A stretch of DNA of 64,000 nucleotides from a virus (lineage: Duplodnaviria > Heunggongvirae > Uroviricota > Caudoviricetes). Position 1 is the stretch's first letter. Each line of letters begins with the position of its first letter. Below, in pieces: positions 10,762-47,914 of this stretch. Under the pieces are notes generated by a model. That model saw nothing but the letters and a program-made list of their open reading frames with translations, was not told the DNA's origin and searched no databases. Location of the stretch: IMG/VR virus record IMGVR_UViG_3300028048_000105, one strand, 5' to 3'. Made by a program: the position numbers and the translations under genes.

Positions 10762-10764
10762 ACC

Positions 10765-22397: not shown

Positions 22398-23309
22398 TTA
22401 AATCATGCGCGTCATCGTCACACCGCCCGGGATTGCATCCTCATGGATCTTTACGGTGTAATCAGAGTATTTGCGAGGAAACTCGACATCATCGTTCTTC
22501 TTGACATCAACTGCTTCAAATAGCTTGTAGGAAGGACAGTTGCCGAGTTCGCTGTCATGCCTGAATACAATCAGCTCACGTACCGCCATCTTCCCGCGTG
22601 CTGCGGAATGGTCATTTTCAAACATATTGATGATGGCTTTCCAGAGAAGATCCAGATCATCTTCGGAAAAACCGGTGGTCTTGCGGGCAAGGTTGGCAGA
22701 AACATATCCTTCCACGCGGTAGAGACCATAAGGGATAATGCTCTTTCTTCCCATCTCGGTGTTCTTCTTTTCCGCATCCTTTTCAGTTGTGATCGCAACT
22801 CTGGTTACGGTAATATCCTGGCTGAAAACAGGATCAATACTTTTTGCAAAGCCAATCTGTACCGGGCCGCGTACCTGTCCACAGTTTAATGCCGCCTTTG
22901 TAAAAGTGGTCATAACAGCACCGAATGTACGGATATCGTAGTAGTTGCTGCACATATAGTCACGGAGCTTAAGGTCTACGTTCTCATCGGTCTTTTTCAG
23001 TTTCTTGACATCCTCAAGTGCCTTCTTACTGTCATCAACATCAACACCAAGGTTTTCGATTGCCTTAAGATCGCTGCGGTTCAACGGAATACCCTCTTTG
23101 ATGTAGATCTTGAAACCGTCTGCATCCTCCTTTGCGGTTTCCACATAGTTGCGGATCTTTCGCTTTAAGCAGGCGTCTGTCACAAGACCGATGCCGGTCT
23201 CTGGATCAACCCTTGGCATGTTTGCGGCATCCGGATCGCCGTTTGGGTTTCCATTCTCTACGTCAAATAATACTACAAAATCATATCTGTTCTGAATCGG
23301 TTTGCTCAT
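22398..23309 (-). CDS. cas7: Cas7 (Csd2), type I-C
   Basis: MSKPIQNRYDFVVLFDVENGNPNGDPDA..VDPETGIGLVTDACLKRKIRNY is the Csd2 N-terminal signature; GGAGG RBS; ORF-track start 23468 is an upstream extension. Confidence 0.85.
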   Translation of the reverse strand: MSKPIQNRYDFVVLFDVENGNPNGDPDAANMPRVDPETGIGLVTDACLKRKIRNYVETAKEDADGFKIYIKEGIPLNRSDLKAIENLGVDVDDSKKALEDVKKLKKTDENVDLKLRDYMCSNYYDIRTFGAVMTTFTKAALNCGQVRGPVQIGFAKSIDPVFSQDITVTRVAITTEKDAEKKNTEMGRKSIIPYGLYRVEGYVSANLARKTTGFSEDDLDLLWKAIINMFENDHSAARGKMAVRELIVFRHDSELGNCPSYKLFEAVDVKKNDDVEFPRKYSDYTVKIHEDAIPGGVTMTRMI

Positions 23310-23310
23310 A

Positions 23311-25050
23311 TTAGTTTTCCTCCATCTTCTCTGCATTTGTCTGGTTGCTTTCAGGATCGCTGTCTTTTGACTTATTGCTTGTATATTCTGCCTGCATCTG
23401 GTGGTAATAACCAAGTGCGAATTTGCCCTGATCCTCATACGTGAAACGCTTCGGGAACCCCGGATCATCCGCTGTAACCGGAATCAGGCCCATCAAACTT
23501 TGGATCTTAGCCGCAAAATAATATCCTTTGCCCGGCTTTGTGCGTTTCAGCTTGCTTAAATGGCTGTTGGACAGTCTGATCAGCACCGGAAATACCGATC
23601 CTGGCGTTGTGCATGCGGAATTGTAAAACTTGTCACAGATCGTCTGGTTGATGTTATCAATTGCTTCCTTCTGTGTCCTTTCCATTACTGCAAACAGTCT
23701 GCCGAGGATATACGCACGGTCTCTGCAGTCTTCGTTTAATACTTCCATATTTTTTCCTTCCTCCCATTTATAGTTCTTTATTAAAAAAGCCTTGATGACC
23801 GCTGCTTTTCTGTAAGTAACGCCTTTGTGCTCGGCACGGATGCGGGACAGCACTCCTGCATACAGGCTCTGCGGATACTTGGTATCCGAAATGACCGACT
23901 GTAACGTCATCGCAGCCATATGCGGAACCGGGGTCCTGTCTGTAAGGTTCTGGTTTACCGTCTCCATAAGCATCTGCCAGATATTGATGAATTCCTGATC
24001 CTCAAACACCGGCTTTATGATCATCATCCGGCTGGCATGTTCCAACAGGTTCTTCCAGATCACTCCGATGGCATCTTCATAGAAGAACCGGACTGCAATT
24101 CTGCCGGCATTCGGTGCAAGACAGAGCACGTACAGTTTTTCATCCGGATCTGCAAGGACATGATCTTTTTCATTGGCGCTCCCCATCATCTTCCGCAGTC
24201 TGCTTACATCATCCACATCCCCGGAATCCGTCCAGAAGACCACCATGGAATCTCCTACCTTGCTGTGGTACCCGTCCGTGGAAAGCAGGTAATTTAATGC
24301 TGTCACATATGCATACGCCACATAGGTGCTGATCGGCGCGTTATAACTTTGTGTTTTCTCATAAGACTCAAGGGACGCGCCGTTAAAGGATACAAGCGCC
24401 GCACCGGATGACTGTGTTCCCGGCACTCCTTTGACCTTCCCATGTGTGCGGGCAATCTCTGCTTCCTTCCCGGTAACCAGGCATCTTCCTGTTACCATTT
24501 CATATGGTACGCTGCTGTAATCCAGCCATGCTCTGCGCACGGTCTCATTGTCATGCACATATTTGCCGTCTACCTCAAATACGAGGTTCCCGCCTTTATA
24601 AAACTTTTCCGCAAGCTTCGCAACTGCCGGGTGATCCAGTGCCTGTTCCGGATCCCATGAACGGAAAAAGCGGCACACTGCCTGTGCTGCCGACTCATCC
24701 ACGACATCAAGGATATCAAGATGTTTCTTCCTTGCTGCTTTAAAACAGTCCAGCGTACGCGGGCTCATCTTCTCATCAATTCCAAAGAGATACTTTGCAT
24801 TTTCGCAGAGAAAGCCGGAAGCAATGTTGTTACCCCGGGTGACCATCTCTGGAACCTGCATAACTGTCGGGATTTCAACAGTCTTTTTCCCTCTCTGTAT
24901 CTCCCGCTTTACGGAAACAATATCCTGGATTATCCCATCGTGGTTTAACACCACCGCATAGGATACCTTTGCATTGCACCAGCCGGGACGGGATACTTTC
25001 CCCTGGTCTGCAAGCGTTTCATATAATTTTACAAGTGACTGCAGGATCAT
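23311..25050 (-). CDS. cas8c: Cas8c (Csd1), type I-C large subunit
   Basis: MILQSLVKLYETLA N-terminus and 579 aa size match Csd1. Confidence 0.85.
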   Translation of the reverse strand: MILQSLVKLYETLADQGKVSRPGWCNAKVSYAVVLNHDGIIQDIVSVKREIQRGKKTVEIPTVMQVPEMVTRGNNIASGFLCENAKYLFGIDEKMSPRTLDCFKAARKKHLDILDVVDESAAQAVCRFFRSWDPEQALDHPAVAKLAEKFYKGGNLVFEVDGKYVHDNETVRRAWLDYSSVPYEMVTGRCLVTGKEAEIARTHGKVKGVPGTQSSGAALVSFNGASLESYEKTQSYNAPISTYVAYAYVTALNYLLSTDGYHSKVGDSMVVFWTDSGDVDDVSRLRKMMGSANEKDHVLADPDEKLYVLCLAPNAGRIAVRFFYEDAIGVIWKNLLEHASRMMIIKPVFEDQEFINIWQMLMETVNQNLTDRTPVPHMAAMTLQSVISDTKYPQSLYAGVLSRIRAEHKGVTYRKAAVIKAFLIKNYKWEEGKNMEVLNEDCRDRAYILGRLFAVMERTQKEAIDNINQTICDKFYNSACTTPGSVFPVLIRLSNSHLSKLKRTKPGKGYYFAAKIQSLMGLIPVTADDPGFPKRFTYEDQGKFALGYYHQMQAEYTSNKSKDSDPESNQTNAEKMEEN

Positions 25051-25706
25051 CGAAACACCTCACTGTTCCCGACATCAATGATGCCATTTTTCATAACTGC
25101 ATGGTAATACATTGGCTGGATATCTCTTCCGCAGGAATAATCCAGGTCATAAAGCATCAGCCCGAAATCCCTGTCCGGAAGTCCTTCATGGCAGGATGCG
25201 ATCTTTTCATCCCCCTCGCAGAGTTTAAAGTGCGCGGGGAATTCCCTTACCCCGAAATACGGCATCGAATAGCACGCCCCTTTTCTTGCCCTGTTATTAA
25301 AGATGCTGATAAATTTCGCCGGGCTGTCCGTCGGGCTCGCCTTGTCCGTCATTTCAAAATGTGCTTCAATCACGTAGCTGACATCACGGAGGATCACGGA
25401 TGCCCTCTGGATAATATCGTCTCTTGACGAATTATACAGCTTGACATCGCCGCCGTTATATGCCTGTAACATATTTGATTTCGGTATCTTGCTGAGAAGT
25501 TCATTCCTTCTTACGCTTGTAGTGGCAATCGGATTTAATACGTGGATTTTATCTACGTACCACCGTAATCCCGGATGCCAGTAGATGGATTCCAGAATCC
25601 CCCTAGCTGCCGACGGAGTCATCACATCATAGGTATACCGTTCTGTTTTCAGTTCCGGTCTAGTGAACAATGCATAATCTCCCCAGACTTTCAGTTTCAC
25701 TCCCAT
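25047..25706 (-). CDS. cas5: Cas5d (Cas5c) endoribonuclease, type I-C
   Basis: MGVKLKVWGDYALFTRPELKTERYTYDVMTPSAARGILESIYWHP; module A promoter at 25806-25838. Confidence 0.8.
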   Translation of the reverse strand: MGVKLKVWGDYALFTRPELKTERYTYDVMTPSAARGILESIYWHPGLRWYVDKIHVLNPIATTSVRRNELLSKIPKSNMLQAYNGGDVKLYNSSRDDIIQRASVILRDVSYVIEAHFEMTDKASPTDSPAKFISIFNNRARKGACYSMPYFGVREFPAHFKLCEGDEKIASCHEGLPDRDFGLMLYDLDYSCGRDIQPMYYHAVMKNGIIDVGNSEVFR

Positions 25707-25926
25707 TCTTCTTTTTCCATTCCTTTTCATCATCATCCATACATCCGAAGATGCAACTTCTGTAATTTCTGTTATCCGGCAAGACATACATCCTGCCCTT
25801 TCAATACACATATTGCGCCATTTAAAAAATCGTCAAAAGATTTTGAAAACTTTTTCAAAAAAAATTGCAAAAAACTGCAGCCAGTTAAACTGACTGCAGT
25901 TTTTTGCGATCTTAAAAATCAATATG

Positions 25927-29265: not shown

Positions 29266-29677
29266 AATTGATTAAAATGAAAGGAAAAGAAAACCATGTT
29301 AAAGATAATGAGTTGTAAAAATTTTAATAATGATTATAGAACATATGGCGATTTCAGCAATATGTTTACTTTCTCATGCTCAAAATCAGGAAAAACATGG
29401 GGACAGAACGATTACTATACACCTTCCCGCAGTCGATTTCGATTTTAAACCAGGCACTTAAAACCGAAATATTGCAAAGCGCAGATGGCCGCGGAGAGAA
29501 GAAATTTCTTGATGCGGCTTTTTTATTGTTGAAAAAGTCATGGACAGGTAGCTGAGATGGATTAGCGAGGGACTGAAAATCCTTACAGGGTGGATCATTA
29601 CCACTCCTGTCCACTCCGCAGCGATGCGGTAAAAAACTGAATGGATAAGAGAAAACAGGCACTTCTTTTATCCGTAT

Positions 29678-29749
29678 GCATGTGAAGTGTTGTTGGCGGC
29701 ACACCTGCCTTCCAAGCAGGACGGGCGGGTTCGAGACCCGTCACATGCT
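29678..29749 (+). tRNA. tRNA-Gly (anticodon TCC)
   Basis: Manual fold: acceptor GCATGTG/CACATGC, anticodon loop CTTCCAA, T-arm GCGGG-TTCGAGA-CCCGT. Confidence 0.65.
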
Positions 29750-29750
29750 C

Positions 29751-29822
29751 TGATCCGTAGCTCAATGGTAGAGCACCCGGCTGTTAACCGGGGCGTTGAG
29801 GGTTCGAGTCCCTCCGGATCAG
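29751..29822 (+). tRNA. tRNA-Asn (GTT)
   Basis: acceptor TGATCCG/CGGATCA, D-arm TAGCTCAATGGTAGAGC, anticodon loop CTGTTAA, T-loop TTCGAGT. Confidence 0.75.
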
Positions 29823-29827
29823 CTCAT

Positions 29828-29909
29828 GCGTTGGTAGTCCAGCGGCGAAGACAGCTGACTGTAAATCAGCCACAAAGAAACACCGGAGGTTCGAGTCCTC
29901 CCCAGCGCA
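29828..29909 (+). tRNA. tRNA-Tyr (GTA), long variable arm
   Basis: anticodon loop CTGTAAA, long variable arm, T-arm GGAGG-TTCGAGT-CCTCC. Confidence 0.7.
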
Positions 29910-29913
29910 CTAT

Positions 29914-29986
29914 ACTTCCGAGGACAAACAGCAGAGTCACCGCCCTGTCACGGCGGAGATAGCGGGGTCAGCACCCGTCGGAAGTG
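29914..29986 (+). tRNA. noncanonical tRNA-like, anticodon GTC (Asp); possible pseudogene
   Basis: Good acceptor (ACTTCCG/CGGAAGT) and anticodon arm (CCGCC-CTGTCAC-GGCGG) but D-loop lacks GG and T-loop is GTCAGCA. Confidence 0.4.
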
Positions 29987-29991
29987 TTCCT

Positions 29992-30064
29992 GCTCCTGTA
30001 GCACAACTGGCAGTGCATCTGATTTGTAATCAGAAGGTTTCCGGTTCGAAGCCGGACGGGAGCT
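29992..30064 (+). tRNA. tRNA-Thr (TGT)
   Basis: anticodon loop TTTGTAA, T-arm TCCGG-TTCGAAG-CCGGA, acceptor GCTCCTG/CGGGAGC (one G-U). Confidence 0.7.
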
Positions 30065-30068
30065 TTAT

Positions 30069-30140
30069 GGATCTGTAGTATAAAGGCTATTACACCCGGC
30101 TGTCTACCGGAAAACGAGGGTTCGATTCCCTCCTGATCCG
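30069..30140 (+). tRNA. tRNA-like, anticodon GTC (Asp) with several stem mismatches
   Basis: canonical T-arm GAGGG-TTCGATT-CCCTC; acceptor with one mismatch; anticodon loop CTGTCTA. Confidence 0.45.
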
Positions 30141-30145
30141 CTCAT

Positions 30146-30219
30146 GTGCCTGTAGCTCAGTTGGCAGAGCACGCGACTTTTAATCGCGGTGGCGTCGGGT
30201 TCAAGTCCCACCAGGCACA
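30146..30219 (+). tRNA. tRNA-Lys (TTT)
   Basis: D-arm TAGCTCAGTTGGCAGAGCA, anticodon loop CTTTTAA, acceptor GTGCCTG/CAGGCAC. Confidence 0.7.
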
Positions 30220-30462
30220 CTAAATATTGAAAAATTCAAGGAAAGGAAGGAAAAACAATGATGACAACAGAAATGAGACAGTGTCCACAGAGAAGTATCA
30301 GTCAGCCGCAGTCATGCAGCTGGCGCAGTTGTCGTGCTCGTAAATACCGTCTCAAATTGAAAGAAATGTGGTCATTGCCTGGGAATTTCTGGGAAAATGT
30401 TGGAAATACTTAAGAAAACGGGGCATACATCTTTCGATTGAGAGGTGTGTGCCTTTATTTTT

Positions 30463-30545
30463 GCTGTACTGGCTCAACCGGAAAAGCAGCGGTCTTAAAA
30501 CCGCCATTCCGAAAGGATATTAGGGTTCGAATCCCTGGCACAGCG
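30463..30545 (+). tRNA. tRNA-Leu (TAA), class II
   Basis: anticodon loop CTTAAAA, long variable arm, T-arm TAGGG-TTCGAAT-CCCTG. Confidence 0.65.
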
Positions 30546-30576
30546 CTCTCCTCCCTTATCAGGGGAACCCATATAT

Positions 30577-30648
30577 GGCATCATAGCCAAACGGCTAAGG
30601 CGTCCGGTTGCAACCCGGAAGGTGAGGGTTCGATTCCCTCCGATGCCT
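30577..30648 (+). tRNA. tRNA-Cys (GCA)
   Basis: anticodon loop TTGCAAC, T-arm GAGGG-TTCGATT-CCCTC. Confidence 0.65.
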
Positions 30649-30653
30649 CTTAT

Positions 30654-30743
30654 GCAGACATATAAAGGTAACTGGTACCCCTCCACACTGCTAATGTGGC
30701 ATGCGGCACAACCGCTGTCCGGGTTCGAACCCCGGTGTCTGCG
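30654..30743 (+). tRNA. tRNA-Ser (GCT), long variable arm
   Basis: acceptor GCAGACA/TGTCTGC, anticodon loop CTGCTAA, T-arm CCGGG-TTCGAAC-CCCGG. Confidence 0.7.
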
Positions 30744-30749
30744 CTATAT

Positions 30750-30817
30750 ACACCTGTCTGATGGACAGAAAGTGGTCTCCAAAACCGCCAACGAGGGTTC
30801 GATTCCTTCCGGGTGTG
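30750..30817 (+). tRNA. noncanonical tRNA-like, anticodon CCA (Trp), shortened D-arm
   Basis: anticodon loop CTCCAAA, T-arm GAGGG-TTCGATT-CCTTC; only 68 nt. Confidence 0.4.
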
Positions 30818-32876: not shown

Positions 32877-33188
32877 ATATTTTCCCTCACATTCTTTATG
32901 AAATTTTTAAATTGCTATATACGTATATTTTTTAAAAATTAACACTCAATAAGCACCACTGCTCCTTTCAAAGCACAAACACTGACTATTGTGCTTCCAA
33001 AATTTTATTATTTCGTCTTCATTACGTATATTGCGCCATCTGTATAAACGTCAAAATTTTTTACATATTTTTGAAAATTTTTTTAAAATAAAAAAAGAAC
33101 CTCATCCAAAGGCTCTTTTCTTACGATAAAACTTACAAGAATGCTCGTATATTCAATATACGAGATGAATTGTGCGAAGCCACACACT

Positions 33189-34722
33189 CTACGCAACAAA
33201 TACAAGCCCCTCGTTGTGTCTTATGATCCGGCATTTCTTTGCCGGGTAGTTTGTTTTCTTATCACCATACACACGAAGATACTGACCGTTTGACAACTGC
33301 CCGGACAATACATGGTATTCACCCATGTATTCGAACAGGGCACCAGGCATCAGACGGTCCGGATTGTTGTAACGTCTTGTGCTCTTCTCAACGGTCAGCT
33401 GCGACCGCATCCGGTCTGCCTCTTTCCGGCCATGACATTTAACCTGTTCTTCATACCAGCCGGAAAGTGACGGGCACTTTTGTTCAAACCGCGGTCTGCG
33501 GTTCTTTGCAATGATCTTTCCATTGAGTCTGTATGTCCTCTCCCTCTGGTTATTGATAATTGCACGGTCATGTCTCCGGAACTGTACGATTTTATGTACA
33601 TAGGTAAACCCCGGGGCTGCCGCCGGTATCAAACCGGCACCAAGGCAGGCAATGCAGAAAGCATCTGCTTCGTGCATTTGGTTATCCTTTGTCTTTTCAT
33701 AGCCAAGGGACTGTCTTGCCATGGAAGTATCCCTGCCTGTGCAGGCATTCAGGTGTTCCGTGTCGACATGTTCTGAAAGGCTGCTCCAAATATACGGGAT
33801 TGCCTGGTTTAACACACTTAAGGCACCGTACTTTTTCAGGATACCGGCTTTCAGTTTCTCAAGCCGTGCTTTTGCATCAGGACTGGTATGTACCTTTCCG
33901 TGACAGCATTCACACAGCCCGGCGATGTTCTTTAAGGTATTGGAGCCGCCCTGTGACCGTGGCACGATATGATGGAAATGTCCGATATCGTTTCCACACA
34001 GAAGACATTTGCCGTGCTGCTGGTCATAAACTGCAGCATTGACATCCCCGTAGCCTTTCAGCGGTCCGTTCTGGAAATCAATGCCGGAAGTTTCCGGATC
34101 ATCCATTAATGCAAATGCAAAACGGTTGACTTCCAATGTCACATCCGTGACCGGAAGAAACTTCTGGATTTTTTTAATCACGTTAACATGGGTTTTCACA
34201 AGCTGTCCTGCGCTCGGGGTGAGCCATCCGGCTTCCCTTACCCGGTTGCAGAACCGTGCCTGTGTATTCCGGATAATCCTGCATGTGACGAACTTATCTG
34301 CAGCGTACTGTGGAAGTTTCCGCATGACCATGCCGGCTTTCAGCATGGTGCCAAAACGTCTGGCAAGCCGTTGGCGTGCCTTGCGTTCGCCATTGCGTGA
34401 CGCCCGGCGGTGTGCCCGGCGCTCATCGACCAGCTTTTTGATGTCCTTGTTGCGGGTTTCCACAACTGCCGAGAATACAGGTTCCGCATTTTCGTTGACC
34501 ACGCTTACGCCGATGTTGGTGCGTCCCGGGTCAATGCCTGCCATAAGTGGCTGCAGAACCGGCTCATTCTCATAAAGCAGCTGTATGGTGTAAGGAATGC
34601 GGCAGGCAATCCTTGCCTTACCAGCATCAAGCAGCTTTTTGATATATCTTTTCCTTTTTGTCGGCATCTGCGGTTTCCCGTCCCTGCCAAGCACATATAT
34701 GTAGTCTGTATCCGGCATGTGA
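33189..34722 (-). CDS. iscB: IscB (OMEGA RuvC-HNH RNA-guided nuclease)
   Basis: PLMP-like N-term, RuvC-I GIDPGRTNIGVSV, Arg-rich bridge helix, HNH CLLCG..HHIVPRSQGG..N..LCECCH; start at M-PDTDYIYVL with AAGGAGGG RBS (ORF-track 34919 start is an extension through the ωRNA). Confidence 0.85.
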
Positions 34723-34995
34723 TGCCCTCCTTTTTGTTTCATTAAATGTTGCGTGCAGTACCGCCGTCCAGCGTATCGGACAGCACCGGTTGTAAACCTG
34801 TGCACACCTTGTCGTACTGTTTCCCTAAGCTGGGTGGACACTCTGCATTGTGCCGGACTGGGAAAATCCGGCAGTGCCTGCCTTGTGACACGTATCCATC
34901 CATGCTTCTGCTCAACCACCAGTCAGACTGGATGATTCAGCAGCTCCGAAGAACCGCTTCCTCATGCTCGGTTATTCAATTGCCGAGTTTGGTTG
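34723..34995 (-). ncRNA. candidate IscB ωRNA #1
   Basis: about 270 nt structured noncoding region immediately 5' of iscB, beginning at the element-end hairpin; by analogy with described IscB ωRNAs. Confidence 0.5.
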
Positions 34996-35310
34996 ACTTT
35001 TCCCTGTCATGATCTCTTCGTAAAAATAATTTTGATTAAGTAACAGCTTTTTGCTTTTCTCAATATATGTAAGGATATCCTCCAATGAATAACCACATTC
35101 CATCAACTGGAATCCAAACGAATCCATTCCCCATCCTTCACCAGCTTTGATGATTGCATTAATTACAGAAGCAGAAACACCACGCTTCAGCAAAAAGTAA
35201 TAATAATCTAAAGTGCATAACATCTGATTGCCACGCAATACAGCCAGCTGTTCTTCTGTAAATCCTTCTTTTTCTGCTTTTTCCAGTAATTTAATCTGTC
35301 CTTTTCTCAA
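34972..35310 (-). CDS. hypothetical protein; 3' end formed by IscB element insertion
   Basis: 112 aa ORF whose last codons run into the IscB element end. Confidence 0.4.
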   Translation of the reverse strand: MRKGQIKLLEKAEKEGFTEEQLAVLRGNQMLCTLDYYYFLLKRGVSASVINAIIKAGEGWGMDSFGFQLMECGYSLEDILTYIEKSKKLLLNQNYFYEEIMTGKSQPNSAIE

Positions 35311-36104
35311 TTATGGTTAATCCTTTCTTTTGCAATTTTGAAATAGTTTTCTTCAAGTTCTATACCAATAAATTTACGGTTTAGAAGTTTGCATGCTACA
35401 CCAACCGTTCCAGATCCCATACAATTATCCAGGACAATATCACCTTCATTGGAAAATGTTTTGACAAGTGTCTCACATAAAAGCAATGGTTTTTGGGTTG
35501 GATGCAAATTTGAAGTCAGACAATCTCTTTGGAATTTCCAAACTTGCGTAGGGTAACGCCACCCAGTATCATTATACTCAATTACTTTTTTTTCATTTTC
35601 ATCTGTAAGTTTTCCGAGTTTACCATTTTTTACCCTGTTTTTCCTTAGTTTCCCTTCATGCTTAACCATTTGAGGATTATATGTACATTGTTTTTTATAA
35701 AATACAGATATTGTCTCTACAGTTTTCCCAACTCTCCGTTTAACCTGATTAATATTTGTTAACCGCTCTTTTTCCCAGTAAATATCATACTTGTAATCGC
35801 TGATATTGCTTACCCTTAATAAAGAAGAAAATGGCTCCTGTCCAAACAATACGATTGCAGCATTATCTTTTGCAATACGACTATATTGATCCCACATTGG
35901 TTTAAATGGTATTACGATATCCCATTTGCACTTAGTTGTCCCATATGGCAGATCACATAAAATCATATCTATTGATTTATCAGGAATAGATTTCATTAAT
36001 TCCAGACAATTTCCATTCCACAATTCATAACTGTATTTTTCCAACATATTTAAACCTCTGTGTATCCGTATTTGACGATAAGAAACTGCCCCGGCATGAG
36101 GCAA
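35307..36104 (-). CDS. DNA methyltransferase (N6-adenine/N4-cytosine family, DPPY-type)
   Basis: DLPYGTT catalytic motif and SAM-binding MGSGTVGVA motif; 265 aa. Confidence 0.7.
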   Translation of the reverse strand: MPHAGAVSYRQIRIHRGLNMLEKYSYELWNGNCLELMKSIPDKSIDMILCDLPYGTTKCKWDIVIPFKPMWDQYSRIAKDNAAIVLFGQEPFSSLLRVSNISDYKYDIYWEKERLTNINQVKRRVGKTVETISVFYKKQCTYNPQMVKHEGKLRKNRVKNGKLGKLTDENEKKVIEYNDTGWRYPTQVWKFQRDCLTSNLHPTQKPLLLCETLVKTFSNEGDIVLDNCMGSGTVGVACKLLNRKFIGIELEENYFKIAKERINHN

Positions 36105-36118
36105 CTTTGCGGATCTGA

Positions 36119-36496
36119 TTACTTTTGGAACTTCTTGATCAGCTCGTTAATATCCCCGGTATACAGCTTCGGCTTTCCATCCGGATCAAGTTCCTGGACC
36201 ATGCTCTGTCCAATACTGATGGCATACATTCCGGATCCGGAACAGCTTTTGTACGACTGCATCCACACCGTCTTATCTTTGATATTAACAAACTCCGTAA
36301 TCACCGTCGGATCTTCATCGTTGTTATCGACCTTCTGCTCGGAAATTGGAAGAAACGTAACATCCCCGCTTAATTTATATGATTCATCAGACAATAATGT
36401 CCCTTTCGCAATATCCGGCATCCGGCATCCGCCGATGAATAATCCGCTGCAGAAAATACATCCAATGACTGCAAACATCCCAATTCTTTTCCTCAT
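36119..36496 (-). CDS. lipoprotein
   Basis: signal peptide MRKRIGMFAVIGCIFCSGLFIGGC; C-terminal domain shared with 21507..21692. Confidence 0.5.
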   Translation of the reverse strand: MRKRIGMFAVIGCIFCSGLFIGGCRMPDIAKGTLLSDESYKLSGDVTFLPISEQKVDNNDEDPTVITEFVNIKDKTVWMQSYKSCSGSGMYAISIGQSMVQELDPDGKPKLYTGDINELIKKFQK

Positions 36497-36816
36497 CTGT
36501 TTTCTCCTCCTGTTTCTGATATTTTCCCGATTTTTTCCCGCATTACCCGATATTTCTCCGCAAACGACATATATCGTTTAATAAGATTTTCCCACGGCAC
36601 ATCCACGCAATGGCGATCCCTGTGTGCTTCCCATTTTCCTTTATCCAAGGCCATTACTTCTTTAATCGTACAAAAACCACGGATTTTCTGTGACCCGCTT
36701 TCGAGAAGCGCAATCTCTTCTCCTACATGGGAAGTCCTGCATCCGCGGATCTCCAGAGTCTTTTTTCCGGACATGATTAAATCCAGCCACTTTTTCTTAA
36801 TGATAAGACCATACAT
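36493..36816 (-). CDS. ASCH domain protein
   Basis: LIIKKKWLDLIMSGKKTLEIR motif. Confidence 0.5.
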   Translation of the reverse strand: MYGLIIKKKWLDLIMSGKKTLEIRGCRTSHVGEEIALLESGSQKIRGFCTIKEVMALDKGKWEAHRDRHCVDVPWENLIKRYMSFAEKYRVMREKIGKISETGGENR

Positions 36817-37253
36817 TACGTTTCACCTATTTCCGGTTCCTTAACCTCAATCTGCTTGAATACAGCTTCGCCATCTTCAATGTAAATCAAGGTAGGATCG
36901 TAAAATTCTTCATATCTCGTGTAGCCAATGAATCCAAAGGTACAGATATGTGGTGCCAGCCAGTCAATGAACTTTTTGATTTCGGAATCTTGATTTATTA
37001 AGTTAGCCCTGATATTGACTTTCCATGTATTCGAAATATTATCGAATTTCATTTTGCTGCAGGTTTTTCCACCAAAATAATAACTGTCACAGCATGCAAT
37101 ACCGAACCATCTGTCACATTTAAAAAAATCGTGATCCGGTAATTCTGTTGGCATTTCTGTGCCTTCAATAAGGTATTGCAGAATATTCACTATTTTCTCC
37201 GGTGTATTTTCAAACATATCAAAACATACGTTAATTTCCGTGTAATTTCCCAT
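36816..37253 (-). CDS. hypothetical protein
   Basis: 145 aa. Confidence 0.45.
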   Translation of the reverse strand: MGNYTEINVCFDMFENTPEKIVNILQYLIEGTEMPTELPDHDFFKCDRWFGIACCDSYYFGGKTCSKMKFDNISNTWKVNIRANLINQDSEIKKFIDWLAPHICTFGFIGYTRYEEFYDPTLIYIEDGEAVFKQIEVKEPEIGET

Positions 37254-37289
37254 TGTAAGTTACTCCTTTTCCGACAGCCGGGATGCCGG

Positions 37290-37826
37290 CTACCATATCG
37301 TTACAGCTTTTCTCTTTCCTGCCTTTTCTCCTGCCGGATGGTATTCTCTATCCTGTTTCGACCGCTCAAAACTTTCATGCACGCTTAAGGAGTTTCCTTT
37401 GCCATACGCAAATGTATTCCCCGCACCCGTCTGGCGTTTCTGCATGGCTGCACTCGGCCGCCAAACAGCCTGTACTGTTCTGGCAGTTTGTGGAAATGTT
37501 TCCGCAGTATCAGTTGATTTGGATGATAAGCCATGGGGTTCCCCAAAAAGACGGGTATGCTGGTATTCCTTAAACTCTTCTTCCGTAAGTACGGATTTTA
37601 TAAGTACCCGGTAGATAAAAGGATGTTCCGATTTAACTTCAATTTTCCCGTTTAAAACGAGTTCCCCAAGTATGCGTTTCATTCGTGCAGGATAACTTTT
37701 CATCTCTTCGCTTAATTTTTTATATGATATTTTCTTCCAGCTGATATTTTCTCCAGTCCCGGCGCTTTTCAGGTTGTGTTCAAGTACGTATACCATTGCT
37801 TCATAATCTTTTATTGTTTCCATCAT
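37290..37826 (-). CDS. hypothetical protein
   Basis: 178 aa. Confidence 0.45.
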   Translation of the reverse strand: MMETIKDYEAMVYVLEHNLKSAGTGENISWKKISYKKLSEEMKSYPARMKRILGELVLNGKIEVKSEHPFIYRVLIKSVLTEEEFKEYQHTRLFGEPHGLSSKSTDTAETFPQTARTVQAVWRPSAAMQKRQTGAGNTFAYGKGNSLSVHESFERSKQDREYHPAGEKAGKRKAVTIW

Positions 37827-37835
37827 ATATCCCTC

Positions 37836-38135
37836 CTACGGACGAATATGGAATCCGAACGAAAAACGTTCATTGATCTCTTTTCGGATCATGTCCATTA
37901 CTTTCGGGTCATTTGTGTAGAACATTGGAATCCCGGTACCATCCGGTTTGCATTCAATTCCTTTTTTTCGGATCTTTTCTATAATCTTTTCCTTTTCACT
38001 TGCCGGAGGGATATATGATGGCACCTCCGGTGTTTCTGATGCTTTCTTTGGCATATTATATCTCCTTGCTTTATATTTTATATTCTTTTCTGTCACCATC
38101 TTTTGTGGTACCAGACAATATTTCAACCCATACAT
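37836..38135 (-). CDS. hypothetical protein (start probably internal; ORF-track start lies inside a CRISPR repeat)
   Basis: 99 aa ORF. Confidence 0.35.
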   Translation of the reverse strand: MYGLKYCLVPQKMVTEKNIKYKARRYNMPKKASETPEVPSYIPPASEKEKIIEKIRKKGIECKPDGTGIPMFYTNDPKVMDMIRKEINERFSFGFHIRP

Positions 38136-38217
38136 CCCATAAGGGATGCAACTATATCTATGCAGGCAGCGACGATTCAGTATAATATTTCAACCCTGCA
38201 CCCTTGCGGGGTGCAAC
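38121..38217 (-). CRISPR. Satellite mini-array: 2 repeats (38121-38152, 38188-38217) + 35-nt spacer
   Basis: TTTCAACCCATACATCCCATAAGGGATGCAAC and TTTCAACCCTGCACCCTTGCGGGGTGCAAC; perfect hairpins; located between two co-oriented ORFs. Confidence 0.6.
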
Positions 38218-38256
38218 TATAACAGTAGCTTAAAGCTATTCACTAACTTTGTTTGC

Positions 38257-38598
38257 CTAGTATATCAGTTTTGTTCCGCATTTCGGACAATGATTTGGAC
38301 GCTGCTCACGGTAATCGTCGATCGTTGCAACCTCATATCCGCAGAATGGACATTCAATATAATCATCCGCATCGTGCCCCTGGTAATGGACATCCATTCC
38401 ATACATAAACCTCTGCTTTAGTTTTTCAACGGATTCTTTTGCTTCCTGCAAAACATCTGCAGAATTCTCGAGCAATTCCACGGCGCCCTCGACTTCCCGC
38501 CCTGTTGATTCTTTTTCGTATGCATCAGCATATGCCCGAAGTTTCCGGATCAACTCGTCCATCTTTTCCCCTCCATATTGTTTTTTCTGTAATTTCAT
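38257..38598 (-). CDS. zinc-ribbon protein
   Basis: CPFCG..CPKCG; preceded by tRNA-like leader copy 3 and module A. Confidence 0.5.
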   Translation of the reverse strand: MKLQKKQYGGEKMDELIRKLRAYADAYEKESTGREVEGAVELLENSADVLQEAKESVEKLKQRFMYGMDVHYQGHDADDYIECPFCGYEVATIDDYREQRPNHCPKCGTKLIY

Positions 38599-38606
38599 TT
38601 AAAAAA

Positions 38607-38750
38607 GGGATATCCGGGAGTCGGACCCGGAACAGCTTACGCTGCGTCCTCACTATCCCTTCCGGGTATTACCCGGAAGGGTAAACAAATATCGAAAGGA
38701 TTTCTGCCAGCCGGTAACCCTGACAGCCCGGTTTATGACCTTTACAATAC
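38607..38750 (-). ncRNA. tRNA-like structured leader element, copy 3 (ends CCGGGUCCGACUCCCGGAUAUCCCUUUUUU)
   Basis: Hairpin + U-run 35 nt upstream of the downstream start codon (intrinsic-terminator-like). Confidence 0.45.
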
Positions 38751-38782
38751 ACATATTGCGCCATCTTAAAAATCGTCAAAAT
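38750..38782 (-). promoter_or_regulatory. Module A promoter copy
   Basis: ATATTGCGCCAT..AATCGTCAAA. Confidence 0.45.
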
Positions 38783-38849
38783 TTTTTTAAAAAAATATTG
38801 TATTTATTTTTATACATAGTATCAACCTTTTATTTTTAATATAATATTA

Positions 38850-41153
38850 TTATCCCAATTCTTCTATTTTTTCGAACGGGACACAACATTTAATTTCTCT
38901 GGATGAAGTGTCCTTTAGTTTTAATACAACACTCATGATTGTATTTGGATTAAAATAAATTTTTTCCCCATATTTTATAAGGTCTACGTTACGATCTACA
39001 AGCGTTTTTAATATAGTAATATATACACTTGCCTCTTCTGCTCCCATTCCTATATAAGGAATTTTTTTATCAACAGCCACTCCTCTGGTTTTTAATTTAT
39101 CTTTTAAATTACCAAGAAATTTTATCTGCGCATCGCTTGCTGTTTTTTTTGAACTAAAAACAGCAATATTAACTGTAATCGCCCCATTTTCGAGCATTTC
39201 TTCTTCCAAAGGCTTTTGTTCCTTTAATTTCTCTTCGTCTTTTTTCTTTTTTTCTACCAAAGCAAAGATTTTTGACTGGAATTCTCCAAACTCACTACGT
39301 CCCTGCTCTTTTGCCCTCAGTTCCTTTTCGAGTGTCTCCTTAAACATTTTCTTTTTCTTATCAATTGTTTTATCCTGCATTCTTGGTGTAATAAGCATCA
39401 TTTTCCCCTCTGCCTTCATCTTCGAAATACGAGAGGCAAGATCAATTAGTCTGGATGCTTGAAGTTTGTTAATATCGCCTTTGTAAAACCCGTCATACTC
39501 ATGCATTAGACGTCCAATTTGATTTTCAGTCGCTTTTATTTTCCCCCATTCATCTTGTAATGCCACGTCCCAGGAATATTTCATATAATCTGGAGATATC
39601 ATACAAAAATCATGAACAAATGAAATTGCATCCTGCATTTTCATTTCACCGATATAATATTTCCCGACACTAGCAGTAAGATCAAACGTAACTGTTGTAT
39701 TTCCCATAACATCTGGATCAGCAAGGTAAATATAGTCATTCCATGTAGGTTTGATACAATAACGATGTTCCGTATCCGGCATAAGTGAGTAGTCCATTCC
39801 AAGGAAATCATAATCATTTTGGAATTCATCCATTTTCTTTGAATTATATTTATCTACTGCATGCGCAAGGTCGCTTAAATCTGCATGTGGTTTTTTCCGC
39901 GCAGAAGATATAATTTCTTCCTGCTCCTGCACAAAGCGATTAACCTGCTCCAACCGATATTCATACGCCTTTGTAAGTTCTGCAAATCGTCCTGCAATTT
40001 CATCGCTAATCTCAAGCGGATCAATCTCACCTTCAAGCATTCGAGACTGTTTCTTTCCAAGAAGTTTTGCATCTATACCAAAAAGAGTAAGAGCTGTACA
40101 CAGATTTCTTGTCCCGCTGCCATCATCTGGAAGAATATCAATGCATAAACAGTTTTCCTTACCTTCATAGAGCCGGGTTCCTCTTCCGATGATCTGCTGA
40201 TACAAAGACGCGTTGCACGTCGGCCGGAAGTTGATAATGGTATCCGCAATAGGAAGATCTGTACCTTCTGTTAAAACCATGCAGTTAATAATGGCGCGGA
40301 CACTCCCGTTCATAAAACCATCAAGCATATTTTTTCTATCTTCTTCCTGTGTTTTCCCTGATAAAACAGCAACACTGCCACGTTCTTTTTCCGGGAGCAG
40401 TTTGTCAACTACTGCCTTCAGGAAATTACAGGTTCTGACAGTAGTACAATAAATAAGAATATGCCGATTCTCCTGGAGACAGTCTGTAAGAACTTTTGCA
40501 ACACTTATTACAGCTTCTTCCGTAATACAACCGTCCAAATCGGATACATTAAAATCCCCCATAGATTTTTTTACGCCTTTCAGGGAATATTTTGCACGGA
40601 CCTCCCGGCAGTGCACCGGACTTAAATATTTATTTTTAATCCCCCAACGAAGATCCTTTGCATAAATAATCTCGTTAAAAACGTCATCTAACCGTACGTT
40701 GTCGCCACGCTTCGGAGTTGCCGTGACACCGATCACACGCTTAGCGCCGGAAAAGTAATTTAAGATCTTCTTATAGGATGGCGCGGCAGCGTGGTGCGCC
40801 TCATCAATGATGATCGTGTGGAAATCGTCCGGCTTATACTGCTTAAGACGGGAGTCATGGCTGAGTGTCTGAACACTCGCAGATACTACCTCTTCCCCAT
40901 TGGAATGGTTTTCTGCCTTTTCTACGCCAAAACTACAGTCGAAATACCGTCTCGGCTGGTTGACCAGTTCATCCCTGTGTGAAAGAATAAGCACCCTTCC
41001 GTATCTCTTAAAGTGGGAGAAGATCCATGTCTTCCCAAGCCCTGTTGCAAGAGCAATCAGGAATCTTCCTTCTTTTAAGCTATCTACCTTATCAATGCAT
41101 TCCTGCTGGTATGGTCTTGATTTTTTCTCTGCTATCTTCTTATTCTGATTCAT
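38850..41153 (-). CDS. SF2 DEAD/DEAH-box helicase family protein (res-subunit-like N-terminus) with long unknown C-terminal region
   Basis: Walker A ATGLGKT, DEAHH box, helicase C motifs QIIGRGTR; 767 aa. Confidence 0.7.
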   Translation of the reverse strand: MNQNKKIAEKKSRPYQQECIDKVDSLKEGRFLIALATGLGKTWIFSHFKRYGRVLILSHRDELVNQPRRYFDCSFGVEKAENHSNGEEVVSASVQTLSHDSRLKQYKPDDFHTIIIDEAHHAAAPSYKKILNYFSGAKRVIGVTATPKRGDNVRLDDVFNEIIYAKDLRWGIKNKYLSPVHCREVRAKYSLKGVKKSMGDFNVSDLDGCITEEAVISVAKVLTDCLQENRHILIYCTTVRTCNFLKAVVDKLLPEKERGSVAVLSGKTQEEDRKNMLDGFMNGSVRAIINCMVLTEGTDLPIADTIINFRPTCNASLYQQIIGRGTRLYEGKENCLCIDILPDDGSGTRNLCTALTLFGIDAKLLGKKQSRMLEGEIDPLEISDEIAGRFAELTKAYEYRLEQVNRFVQEQEEIISSARKKPHADLSDLAHAVDKYNSKKMDEFQNDYDFLGMDYSLMPDTEHRYCIKPTWNDYIYLADPDVMGNTTVTFDLTASVGKYYIGEMKMQDAISFVHDFCMISPDYMKYSWDVALQDEWGKIKATENQIGRLMHEYDGFYKGDINKLQASRLIDLASRISKMKAEGKMMLITPRMQDKTIDKKKKMFKETLEKELRAKEQGRSEFGEFQSKIFALVEKKKKDEEKLKEQKPLEEEMLENGAITVNIAVFSSKKTASDAQIKFLGNLKDKLKTRGVAVDKKIPYIGMGAEEASVYITILKTLVDRNVDLIKYGEKIYFNPNTIMSVVLKLKDTSSREIKCCVPFEKIEELG

Positions 41154-41220
41154 TTTTTAATCTCCCTGTATTTTGTCATGTTTATGTAGTTTTTGCGCCG
41201 CTTCGTGCGGTCTTGTAAAA

Positions 41221-41365
41221 GAAGCATCCGGGAATCGGACCCGGAAGCAGCATGTGCTGCTATCCTCCTGCTCCTTTCCGGGTTTTTCCCGGAAGCGTAA
41301 ACATTTTTCGAAAGGATTTCTGCCAGCCGGTAACCCTGGCAGCCCGGTTTATGACCTTTACATGA
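41221..41365 (-). ncRNA. tRNA-like structured leader element, copy 4
   Basis: Same hairpin series; T-arm mimic CCGGGUCCGAUUCCCGG. Confidence 0.4.
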
Positions 41366-41396
41366 TACATATTGCGCCATCTGGTAAATTGTCAAA
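41366..41396 (-). promoter_or_regulatory. Module A promoter copy (TTGACA variant)
   Basis: ATATTGCGCCAT..AATTGTCAAA. Confidence 0.45.
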
Positions 41397-41653
41397 GGAA
41401 TTTAGAAAGTTTTTTAAAAATATTTTTGCAACCGTATACTGGAAAACCTCATATTTTAATTTTTGAGATAAGCTGTACACATCGTCCGCTTGCAGGCAGA
41501 AAAAGAAGGAACGGTTTCCCATTCCCCCTTAAGTGATTTGTTGCTATCTTCTCTTATCCACAACTTCCTTCGGGACATCCCAGATTTTTTCGCTGATTTC
41601 CTTCTCGATTTCATAGTTTCAAGATAAATAGGCGAGGATTCTCGGTAATTCAA

Positions 41654-43063
41654 TTACCGAGAGGAATCGCCCAGTGGAGTCCTTTTGTAACTATACCGGT
41701 AGCCATCGCCGTACTGCTTAAGCTTGCAGTTTTTGTAATTAACGGTTATGCGTTCACCTTCTGTTGTTTTTATATCAAAGTATCCACTTGCTCTTGTTGA
41801 TACGCGACCGGTATGTTTTCCTTTATATTTTCCTTTGGGTACATCTGCCGTTACGATATCTCCGTTCTGGAAACCGAAGATACGTTTTGGCGTTTTCCCC
41901 AGCTTTTGTATGATGATTCCGCATTTATTGATCTTCCCACGGAAATGGGTGCCTCTTCCCATCGCTTCTGCATACAGGAAGTAGCCGTTTGTAAGGTCTT
42001 TAAATCCTTTTTTTGGTACGGTACCGACACACAACGCATCATAATGGTGGTCTTTCGGAAGGTTTAACTTTGTACGGTTGTATTTCGTCTTCCCGCCTGT
42101 GGAACACTCCACGTCATCAAAGATTGCAAACAGCCCATTCTCTTCATACCGGCGCAGGATGCCAGCCCATGCACTGTAGCGGTTACTGTTCTTCTGCACC
42201 TTGCCATTCATGACAGCCTTGATGCCTTTTAACCTCGCCTTGTCAAGCTTCGTTTTCTTAGGCTTTACATTGATGGACTCCAGCCATTCTTCCAGCTTCA
42301 TGGAACCTTTTTCCTGATTACAGGTATGGCAGGAAAGGGTGGCATTTTTTACACTGTCACTTCCTCCTCTGGAACGTGGGATGACATGCTCCCACTCCAT
42401 GATGCTGTCATTGGATTCCCCGCCGCAGTACTGGCAGGTATGGGCGTACTTTTCCAGAAGGTATTCACGGATCTCTGTACCCGCAAGGGTTCCCTGCTGG
42501 TACTGGACACCTTCGATATCCGGGTTATCCATCAGCTGGGAATCAAACCTTACTGCCTCGAAAGAACAGTCTGTGATGTTAAAGAGCTGCTTTAACCTTA
42601 TGACCCATGAGATGACGTTATCACCGATGGAACGCTGGGATGGTGGAAGCCATCCGTCAGGACGGGAACTGTCATACTGCGGTTTCTTCCCTTCCGGGAG
42701 CTGTTTGTTTCCCCACTTCGGCCTGCGATAGCGGGTCTCCCGGTTCCTGCGGTTCCTCCTGCACTGGCTTCTTGTCTGCAGGTTCTTTTTTACCTGATCC
42801 CCGCGGTGCTCAATCTGCTGAAAGAATACCACGGCGTTGTCCTCATTCCTTACTACGGCAATCCCTGTATACTTTGCACCCGGGTCGATCTTGACCCGGT
42901 AGGTACCTTCCGGTTTGATTTCCCTTGTGTCTTTATCCTTTAAGATGATCACAAACGGAAAGGTTTTGTATACGCATGCCCGCTTCTTTTCCAACAGAAT
43001 GCGTGCCCTCCGCTCAGTGCAGACACCAAGGGGACGCTTTCTTTTATCAAGTGTTATGACCAT
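41654..43063 (-). CDS. iscB: IscB (OMEGA RuvC-HNH RNA-guided nuclease)
   Basis: PLMP N-term MVITLDKRKRPLGVC, RuvC-I IDPGAKYTGIAV, bridge helix RRNRRNRETRYRR, HNH CQYCG..HVIPRSRGG..N..SCHTCN, C-terminal TI-like domain. Confidence 0.85.
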   Translation of the reverse strand: MVITLDKRKRPLGVCTERRARILLEKKRACVYKTFPFVIILKDKDTREIKPEGTYRVKIDPGAKYTGIAVVRNEDNAVVFFQQIEHRGDQVKKNLQTRSQCRRNRRNRETRYRRPKWGNKQLPEGKKPQYDSSRPDGWLPPSQRSIGDNVISWVIRLKQLFNITDCSFEAVRFDSQLMDNPDIEGVQYQQGTLAGTEIREYLLEKYAHTCQYCGGESNDSIMEWEHVIPRSRGGSDSVKNATLSCHTCNQEKGSMKLEEWLESINVKPKKTKLDKARLKGIKAVMNGKVQKNSNRYSAWAGILRRYEENGLFAIFDDVECSTGGKTKYNRTKLNLPKDHHYDALCVGTVPKKGFKDLTNGYFLYAEAMGRGTHFRGKINKCGIIIQKLGKTPKRIFGFQNGDIVTADVPKGKYKGKHTGRVSTRASGYFDIKTTEGERITVNYKNCKLKQYGDGYRYSYKRTPLGDSSR

Positions 43064-43335
43064 AGTTACTGTCTCCTTAAAAATCCAGTTACGGACTTGT
43101 ACTGCGGCTGGCACCACGATGGTGCTGTGGTAGCCAGCTGCTTCTTCTCGTTAATGTTGAGAATGGGTTACGCGGGCAGCGCACTGTCCGGTGTCTCGGA
43201 CCTGACGACTTAGCAACCGCCCATCGGCTTTCATGCTGAAGAAGCACATACCGCCGCCTCCATCCTAACGTAGTCCCGAAGGACTGAAACTGCTCAACCA
43301 TCTATCGGACAGCTTCGCATGCTCTCGCATGCTCG
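43064..43335 (-). ncRNA. candidate IscB ωRNA #2
   Basis: Structured 270-nt region 5' of iscB, begins right after a truncated module B. Confidence 0.5.
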
Positions 43336-43449
43336 GCTATTCAATAGCCGAGTAGTTGACTTCTCCTTTTAAATATGTTTTGTTTACACCCTTAATATGC
43401 AATAAAAAAAGAAGAGCCCGAAGACTCTCCTTAATGTTATCTGCAGGTG

Positions 43450-47395: not shown

Positions 47396-47914
47396 TTACA
47401 ATTTGATAACTCCAAAAGGTATATCATGAAACTGCTTTAAAACCGCCAACTTTCGTTTCTCATCCGAATCAAAACTTGGAGTCGGTGGAAACTGAATTTC
47501 TCCGTTCTTCTTATATTTTCCATTTTCATCACACTCGCAGAGAATATGCACCAAATATCTGCTCTCAACAATAATATCCGCGAATAAACGGCCTTCCCGA
47601 AATTCAATTCCTGCTACATAGCCAATCCCCTTCAAAGGATAGCCAAGACCTTTAATCTGACACGATTTAACCATTTCATCTGGAATTTCCATATACTCCG
47701 GCTGATTCATATCGGTGCTGGTGACAAATTCCTTGTCAGTGTTATATGTAAATTCCAAACCCTTACACGACCATTTAAACCATGATACACTCAATAATTT
47801 CAGACTTTTCCCCTTATACTCGAATGTTTCTCCAAACTTACACGGTAATGGAATTCTCATATACAATACCTCCAAATGATCCTTTAGCAAAAAATATCCA
47901 GATAATCCAATCAT
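47396..47914 (-). CDS. hypothetical protein
   Basis: 172 aa; long leader from module A at 48290-48322. Confidence 0.45.
   Translation of the reverse strand: MIGLSGYFLLKDHLEVLYMRIPLPCKFGETFEYKGKSLKLLSVSWFKWSCKGLEFTYNTDKEFVTSTDMNQPEYMEIPDEMVKSCQIKGLGYPLKGIGYVAGIEFREGRLFADIIVESRYLVHILCECDENGKYKKNGEIQFPPTPSFDSDEKRKLAVLKQFHDIPFGVIKL

Follow-up and report, generated by a model that had tools for sequence, protein, structure and literature searches.

The DNA analysed here (the window) is a 64,000-nt stretch of the viral record IMGVR_UViG_3300028048_000105. It carries two elements, E1 and E2, each with a gene for IscB, the RNA-guided nuclease that is the ancestor of Cas9. Comparison of filled with empty sites in related replicons places the ends of both elements to the base, and it is very probable that both are insertion sequences of the IS200/IS605 family, non-autonomous and of the IscB (ISC) type, for which guide-directed homing is proposed. 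They are well-resolved examples of a kind of element that is already known. What they add, for two IscB orthologues, is natural ends known to the base, together with target motifs and pairs of guide and target. One of the two, IscB#1, is a near relative of OgeuIscB and OrufIscB, both genome-editing enzymes. They also provide a view of wild populations, in which an IscB element changes sites within one family of replicons, a gene is silenced by an insertion just ahead of it and goes on to decay, one set of transposase-recognition hairpins is used by two unrelated IscB lineages, and ends of the E1/E2 type collapse into 56-nt mini-elements. The locus is a test bed for the OMEGA nuclease homing model, and the model itself is unchanged by it.

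Read along iscB, both elements run from GTCAAC through a hairpin, the ωRNA, iscB and a second hairpin to an 18-19-nt tail with terminal ATC. Their features are listed below (ORF, open reading frame; TAM, target-adjacent motif; RBS, ribosome-binding site; a slash marks an insertion point, and A to D are insertion sites).

33119..33124, minus strand: E1 TAM, GTAAGA on the iscB strand and CTTAC on the TnpA strand, from the empty/filled comparison
33125..34997, minus strand: complete element E1, 1873 nt, GTCAAC...TTTTATC, from filled against empty sites in relatives
33125..33164, minus strand: E1 left end, hairpin 33144-33164 and the 19-nt tail CATTCTTGTAAGTTTTATC
33189..34718, minus strand: iscB#1, 509 aa, OgeuIscB/OrufIscB-like; Pfam RRXRR and HNH, full-length alignment to 7xht
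34719..34997, minus strand: E1 ωRNA scaffold, 279 nt, including the right-end hairpin 34967-34987; from HEARO, fold and similarity to L044
34972..35310, minus strand: 112-aa ORF, left from the 5′ portion of a 606-aa PcfJ-like gene by the cut at site D; stop codon in the E1 hairpin loop
34998..35013, minus strand: predicted 16-nt guide flank of E1, ATCATGACAGGGAAAA, at the end of the truncated PcfJ-like ORF
41456..41615, minus strand: remnant of the gene displaced by E2, out of frame, from comparison with the L016 and L018 genes
41617..41622, minus strand: E2 TAM, TTGAAA on the iscB strand and TTCAA on the TnpA strand, from the empty/filled comparison
41623..43360, minus strand: complete element E2, 1738 nt, GTCAAC...CTATTTATC, from filled against empty sites in relatives
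41623..41661, minus strand: E2 left end, hairpin 41641-41661 (containing the iscB stop codon) and the 18-nt tail AATCCTCGCCTATTTATC
41654..43063, minus strand: iscB#2, 469 aa, a divergent IscB; Pfam RRXRR and HNH, matches to IscB in the PDB
43064..43360, minus strand: E2 ωRNA scaffold, 297 nt, including the right-end hairpin 43332-43352; from HEARO, covariation and fold
43361..43376, minus strand: predicted guide flank of E2, ATATTTAAAAGGAGAA, the RBS end of module B
43361..43432, minus strand: terminator-like hairpin (43432..43409) and module B before E2, CATATT-N6-TGTAAAC-N14-16-AAGGAGAA
47603..47623, minus strand: empty site B in a 172-aa ORF, GGCTATGTAGCAGGAA/TTGAA, occupied by E2 in L002-L011

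Ends of the elements and their empty sites

The relatives (L002 and so on) are metagenome contigs obtained through exact-protein look-ups in assemblies. At least 23 metagenome contigs encode exactly the E2 protein, and their record names, where they state a source, give human gut. Ten of them were read (L002-L011); they share with the window a stretch of 1746 nt, at 99.8-99.9% identity, but have it in other surroundings. The flanking DNA of the two E2-bearing lineages is 88-99% identical, though E2 occupies unrelated sites in them. Site B, where E2 lies in these contigs, is uninterrupted in the window between 47608 and 47607 (...GCTATGTAGCAGGAA/TTGAATTTCGG), and site A, the site of E2 in the window, is empty in L016, L018 and L020 (...GAAAGGAGAA/TTGAAACTATG..., also given as ...TTTGAAAGGAGAA/TTGAAACTATGAAAGAG). 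Subtraction of the flank common to both sites puts the start of E2 at 43360 and its end at 41623. The GAA that precedes GTCAAC at both E2 sites was considered as part of the element and rejected, as the empty sites show it to be flank. A reading made earlier from the sequence alone (the sequence-only reading) had started the element at an AGTCAAC-type boundary; the start is GTCAAC, and the AA before it belongs to the flank. The hairpins that it had called terminal are subterminal, with the elements reaching 18-19 nt past the 3′ hairpin, to 33125 and 41623.

For E1, site C is empty in L037, L039 and L043 (...TAGTTAATGT/GTAAGAAAAGAGCC, also given as ...GATAGTTAATGT/GTAAGAAAAGAGCC) and is filled in L034, L035, L038, L040 and L042 by an internally deleted E1. 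The alleles of E1 and E2 in related replicons are filled, empty or elsewhere placed. The joins, as judged from empty against filled alleles of E2 at sites A and B and of E1 at site C, are seamless and without target-site duplication, and terminal inverted repeats are absent from both elements.

The E1 junction in the window is unusual in that the flank at the ωRNA end is site D while the other flank is site C. Up to 34998 the region is 99.4-99.8% identical to L024-L033, which then continue GTAAAAATG... through the intact 606-aa PcfJ-like gene (...ACAGGGAAAA/GTAAAAATG). Where both sites are empty (L025 and L036, on the same contig) they are ~6.7 kb apart, and the ~6.7 kb between them is lost in the window, both junctions being proper target sites. 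This is best explained by insertions at both sites and recombination between the copies, or by a one-ended TnpA event, in which TnpA would join the right end to DNA on the 3′ side of another TTAC. At site C, E1 is in a transcribed position, as it has the stop codon of a 51-aa gene on one side and the terminator of that gene on the other.

E2 had been described as lying directly behind a repeated module, module B, and displacing the gene that the module normally precedes, and the empty sites in L016, L018 and L020 agree with this. Module B is present in seven copies, each with a T-rich terminator tail, CATATT-N5-6-TGTAAAC, a stretch of 14-16 nt and GAAAGGAGA. In six copies the ATG of an ORF is found 5-9 nt past the GGAGA box; in the seventh the GTCAAC of E2 follows directly. 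In the relatives the module serves a gene of 164 aa (L016) or 352 aa (L018) that starts TTGAAACT-ATG. The insertion point of E2 falls between the RBS and the ATG, the TTGAA motif lying in the spacer between them, so that in the window the ATG of the displaced gene is behind the left end of E2; ~424 nt are missing there between two ATGAAA repeats. Transcription into the E2 ωRNA probably starts in module B. Another copy of the module, at L002:1398-3439 (also in L004 and L005), contains a tnpA-tnpB IS605 between TTGAAA and GGAGAA, and the C5 methylase gene downstream has lost its 5′ portion. The right end of this IS605 finishes TAGTTGAC as E2 does, and its hairpin is different.

Hairpins, target motifs and the wider family

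On its minus strand the window has exactly four matches to the pattern CTCGNNNATTGAATNNNCGAG (33144-33164, 34967-34987, 41641-41661 and 43332-43352), and the hairpins that it describes (CTCG-NNN-ATTGAAT-NNN-CGAG) are confined to the four element ends. By chance 0.2 occurrences would be expected, and none of 100 shuffles reached four. All four have a 9-bp stem, a TGA loop and co-varying central stem positions. Related elements are arranged alike, with similar subterminal hairpins on one strand at their left and right ends. The sequence-only reading was right that the ends share hairpins despite divergent proteins: one hairpin family is found at all four ends, and the proteins are 24% identical. 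Since GTCAAC, the hairpin family and the CATG after the hairpin are common to E1 and E2, a recent duplication inside the replicon might be thought of. This is refuted by divergence, however, and has next to no probability: as the earlier reading had argued, the low identity of the proteins contradicts it, and in addition the ωRNAs cannot be aligned past the first ~40 nt and the tails and TAMs differ.

Two other IscB lineages, L032 from the same replicon family and L044 from a viral contig, have a different hairpin pair, CTCATGACTAAAGTCACGAG. A hairpin near-identical to this pair, with one base different, is found on a tnpA-tnpB IS605 in L073. Hairpin type tracks the transposase system and not IscB phylogeny, which is why two divergent iscB genes share ends. 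The L032 element (L032:2661-4300) is a third IscB element, encoding 418 aa and lying upstream of a methyltransferase; it gives a strong HEARO match of 115.6 bits.

The ωRNA scaffold of IscB elements derives from the TnpA-defined right end of the transposon, and the TAM adjoins the left end, 3′ of iscB; the guide is encoded outside the element, so that ωRNA production requires transcription entering from the flank, and genes upstream of iscB are biased toward the same orientation (Meers et al, 2023, PMC10055086). As the ωRNA end is the right end, the TnpA top strand corresponds to the plus strand of the window and the target motif lies 3′ of iscB. At three independent sites the motif of the E2 family is TTGAA (TTGAAA in the window, TTGAAT in the L002 type and TTGAAA in L197, a 94% identical copy). 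The three sites of the E1 family have GTAAGA (site C) and GTAAAA (site D and L089). On the TnpA strand the motifs read TTCAA for the E2 family and TTAC for the E1 family. GTAAGA and GTAAAA fit NWRRNA, which we take to be the TAM of OgeuIscB.

The comparison of flanks with empty sites that the sequence-only reading had called for therefore defined the exact ends and target motifs of both elements. Its view of sequence-targeted insertion as in IS200/IS605 stands, in that insertion is targeted and leaves no duplication, but the motif is not the promoter/RBS module at the ωRNA end, 3′ of which insertion had been placed; the real motif, TTGAA or GTAAG/GTAAA, is at the opposite end. Since the guide needs outside transcription, the landing of E2 behind a promoter is better explained by retention of externally transcribed insertions than by recognition of the module.

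In 29 of 32 distinct left-end tails the base adjacent to the hairpin could form a Watson-Crick pair with the first one beyond the element (G:C 14, A:T 9, C:G 4 and T:A 2), compared with only 5-14 at neighbouring offsets. This covariation suggests an IS608-type rule, in which DNA near the hairpin would specify the cleavage and target site. By this rule E1, with C beside the hairpin foot, would take G-TAA, and E2, with A beside it, would take T-TGAA. IS608 from Helicobacter pylori is alike in having subterminal hairpins, in leaving no duplication and in inserting 3′ of TTAC, the same motif as E1, its target pairing with bases 5′ of the left hairpin. Unlike E1 and E2 it carries tnpA and tnpB, not iscB, and the pairing has been shown structurally there, whereas here it comes from covariation. 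The IscB element ISGst5 from Geobacillus stearothermophilus is likewise a non-autonomous IS605-type element with a right-end ωRNA scaffold, an outside guide, dependence on outside transcription, a TAM common to TnpA and IscB, and ends that resemble those of co-resident elements (Meers et al, 2023, PMC10055086). On the TnpA strand its TAM is TTCAT, compared with TTCAA or TTAC here; E1 and E2, which are known from sequence only, have hairpins of another sequence family, and are found in gut Clostridia hosts and, here, on a large, unclassified, extrachromosomal-looking carrier.

The family was searched for with the pattern GTCAAC-N(1-6)-CTCGG-NN-ATTGAAT-NN-CCGAG. Species-representative genomes gave 36 loci (Lachnospiraceae, Ruminococcus, Blautia, Acetatifactor, other Clostridia, one Bulleidia and one Eggerthellaceae), many of them at contig ends, as is expected of multi-copy repeats, with upstream flanks that are unrelated between copies right up to GTCAAC. 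A metagenome scan gave at least 119 stretches, and over both scans at least 155 right-end hits were collected from gut and rumen Clostridia, with 17 complete copies among the matches listed. About 45 of the at least 155 are mini-elements of ~56 nt, consisting of GTCAAC, one hairpin and a 17-19-nt left-end tail. They are found in L045, L046, L048, L052, L067 and ~40 metagenome loci, one variant (the L086 type) being present in 20 fetched loci. Like the palindrome-associated transposable elements (PATEs), these Clostridia copies, which lie outside the window, are protein-less with IS200/IS605 ends, but here a single hairpin serves both ends.

The mini-elements show that the hairpins are recognition parts of a mobile unit. 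That the hairpins instead act only as RNA, as a terminator, a processing site or stem 1 of the ωRNA, is suggested by the right-end hairpin being the first stem-loop of the HEARO/ωRNA model and by a simple terminator scan, which lists the E1 3′ hairpin. It is nevertheless highly improbable that they are not transposase sites. The 3′ hairpins are without a real U-tract, the mini-elements retain one hairpin between both termini in the absence of iscB and ωRNA, the base adjacent to the hairpin co-varies with the flanking target base, and the L032 and L044 lineages use another hairpin pair that is also present on a tnpA-tnpB IS605.

ωRNAs, IscB proteins and predicted guides

The structured region of ~270 nt that had been noticed upstream of each iscB is 279 nt long in E1 and 297 nt in E2. 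HEARO RNA (RF02033) matches both, beginning exactly at GUCAAC, in the same orientation as iscB and directly upstream of it, the place expected for an RNA that precedes an HNH/RuvC ORF. The covariance-model check proposed earlier was thus borne out in extent, the whole model being covered in both elements, but not in score, as the full-length match to E2 (43360..43137, 51.9 bits, E 2e-8) and the weak whole-model match to E1 (34997..34800, 17.8 bits) are both under the Rfam gathering score of 83 bits. Against shuffled sequences the fold z-scores are -3.2 for the E1 ωRNA and -3.7 for that of E2. An alignment of eight E2-type ωRNAs, from bacterial metagenome-assembled genomes and one viral contig, contains 54 consensus pairs with compensatory changes in 32; 88% of cells are paired, compared with 30-42% when partners are slid, and none of 500 shuffles reaches the observed values, although these figures are somewhat flattered as the alignment also supplied the consensus structure. 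For E1-like ωRNAs, a mixed alignment across hairpin families was too poor and was dropped, so that the E1 ωRNA rests on the weak HEARO match, the fold z-score and its resemblance to that of L044, with which it can be aligned; the IscB of L044 is 59% identical to IscB#1. The sequence-only reading had named a lack of ωRNA-like covariation or structure as a refutation; covariation is present in the E2-type alignment and stable folds in both. An orphan 80-nt 5′ end of an E1-type ωRNA (GTCAAC, hairpin and CATG...) is seen at L016:12731-12811, in a relative without E1, where it adjoins CRISPR-like repeats.

Both proteins have the features of IscB, with an N-terminal PLMP/RRXRR region, a split RuvC with an inserted HNH and the catalytic residues. 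The domains are therefore as first reported; the literal PLMP is not, being PQMP in IscB#1 and RPLG in IscB#2, and the start of iscB#1, given before as 34722, is corrected to 34718. IscB#1 aligns end-to-end with OgeuIscB (7xht; E 7.5e-116 in phmmer, ~50% identity) and better still with an OrufIscB construct. The motifs IDPG of RuvC-I, LEVNRF of RuvC-II, HHIVPRS of HNH and H..DA of RuvC-III are kept. Compared with OgeuIscB and OrufIscB (7xht, 7utn and 9nvu) it is alike over its full length, with the same catalytic motifs, and it is a different ortholog, for which this analysis defines the transposon ends and target sites used in nature. IscB#2 is no more than a distant relative of these enzymes (E about 1e-20). 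Its best match in the PDB is TbaIscB (E 3.6e-27 in phmmer), followed by OgeuIscB (7.6e-20), with IscB matches ranging to 7.3e-19. The catalytic motifs of IscB#1 and IscB#2 align with each other.

Guides were taken as the 16 nt before GTCAAC and searched for across the window and all fetched relatives. At up to one mismatch, no match to the guides was seen in the window beyond the elements' own flanks. The E1 guide is matched exactly in L025, L026, L028, L029, L030 and L032 and with one mismatch in L024, L027 and L033, and GTAAAA is always next to it. The E2 guide matches the empty sites of six relatives with one mismatch, in the form ATATTT[A/G]AAAGGAGAA and then TTGAAA. For E2 at site B the guide is found exactly in the window (47623..47608) and in L020, with TTGAAT next, and for the deleted E1 at site C it matches three empty relatives, with GTAAGA next. 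Such matches of guide and TAM at empty sites are the pattern predicted by the RNA-guided homing model.

By analogy with IS608 and the ISGst elements, whose mechanism is known, a Y1 TnpA supplied in trans would bind both hairpins on the plus strand of the window, cleave the left end 3′ of TTCAA or TTAC and the right end 3′ of ..TTGAC, and move the element as single-stranded DNA. The base beside the foot of the left hairpin would pair with the last base of the motif, setting the target. Outside transcription, from module B for E2 and from the upstream operon for E1, would cross the last ~16 nt of the flank into the ωRNA scaffold, giving a guide that matches the uninterrupted site. IscB-ωRNA may then cut motif-adjacent empty sites, whether left by excision or present in co-resident relatives, and recombinational repair would copy the element back in.

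Some observations weigh against E1 and E2 being mobile, homing elements of this kind. A cognate TnpA for their hairpins was not found in the window or the relatives, and tnpA is absent within E1, E2 and all 17 complete family copies. The E2 guide has its one mismatch to the known empty sites, a sigma-70 consensus was not found in module B, which is only promoter-like, and there are the HEARO scores under the gathering score. The tnpA of the window, the L002 IS605 and the tnpA genes of L052/L123, L072 and L073 were considered as the cognate TnpA and rejected, all having other hairpins.

With no cognate TnpA found, the two might be domesticated, immobile RNA-guided nucleases that the carrier keeps as weapons or regulators, the hairpins being relics. 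The position of E2 under a carrier promoter module, the identity of its protein in at least 23 contigs and the guide matches to sibling replicons would all agree with this. It is unlikely all the same, as two unrelated sites, both with seamless empty alleles, hold the 1738-nt E2 in copies of 99.9% identity, the ends obey the TnpA guide rule, the family is multi-copy in Clostridia genomes and the internally deleted E1 copies in several relatives represent decay, not conservation. Mobile insertion sequences remain the preferred interpretation.

A further, speculative possibility, to which we would give perhaps one chance in a few, is that E1 and E2 serve as natural gene drives, guided by RNA, in a competition between giant replicons of one family in the human gut, with module B supplying the guide and E1 homing driving a deletion. 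Were this so, the lineages with E2 at site B would be armed against the empty site B of the window, and the window lineage against sites A and D where these are empty. By homing, E1 would drive the 6.7-kb deletion allele into siblings, because its guide targets the intact 606-aa gene while its other flank is 6.7 kb off. Module B may also start transcription near GTCAAC, giving a guide of ~16-20 nt without processing. Homing into co-infecting phages or plasmids is a listed OMEGA mode in a 2026 review (PMC13565253), and IscB genes are already annotated in isolate phages and many large plasmids.

The carrier replicon

The carrier belongs to a contig family of up to 356 kb, for which most record names give human gut. 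Close relatives were not found among GenBank phages or PLSDB plasmids by megablast, or in IMG/VR using the helicase. The features of the window that bear on its nature are as follows.

7036-8088: ORF for a Mob_Pre-type relaxase
9273-9792: ~14 iteron-like repeats of 22-24 nt, TATCAGTAAGGTGATAC
10339-10761: Y1 transposase gene (Y1_Tnp, E 5.6e-39), followed by a 518-aa ORF assigned to PHROG 506 'transposase' and without a Pfam match
21777-25811: type I-C cascade genes for Cas7, Cas8c/Csd1 and Cas5d (Pfam E 1.7e-106, 9.5e-160 and 2.4e-38)
29542-30817, plus strand: 10 tRNA genes in an array, with nearly all protein genes on the other strand

On account of the tRNA array and of matches to PHROG, the carrier was considered as a jumbo phage. 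This was set aside because of the relaxase, the iteron-like repeats, the I-C cascade and a type I restriction gene, and the carrier may be a phage, a plasmid or both. The relaxase and iteron-like repeats suggest a plasmid-like origin and that the carrier may not be a phage. The 'Jug phage' paper is without mention of IscB or TnpB; it describes group I introns, which are absent here. An ISL3 transposase is also found in the window, as is the type I restriction gene.

The pair formed by tnpA and the 518-aa ORF (10196-12682) has at its borders inverted repeats of 29 bp, each of them a hairpin in itself, CTGCACGCGAAGACGCGGCAG. These ends are unrelated to those of E1 and E2, and inverted ends are unusual for IS200/IS605. 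Beside the cascade genes are CRISPR-like 33-nt repeats, GTTGCATCCCTTATGGGATGTATGGGTTGAAAT, with a 68-nt period, and solitary copies lie at 14725, 27956 and 38120; Cas3 and adaptation genes were not seen among the ORFs checked. A promoter-like repeat, module A (TTGACG..ATGGCGCAATATGT), is present in 10 copies, and a conserved leader of ~150 nt follows several of them on the minus strand (27733, 30889, 38603 and 41217). The leader holds a tRNA T-arm-like GGTTCGAnTCC and at 38611-38653 gives a weak Rfam match, of 26 bits, to Deinococcus Y RNA.

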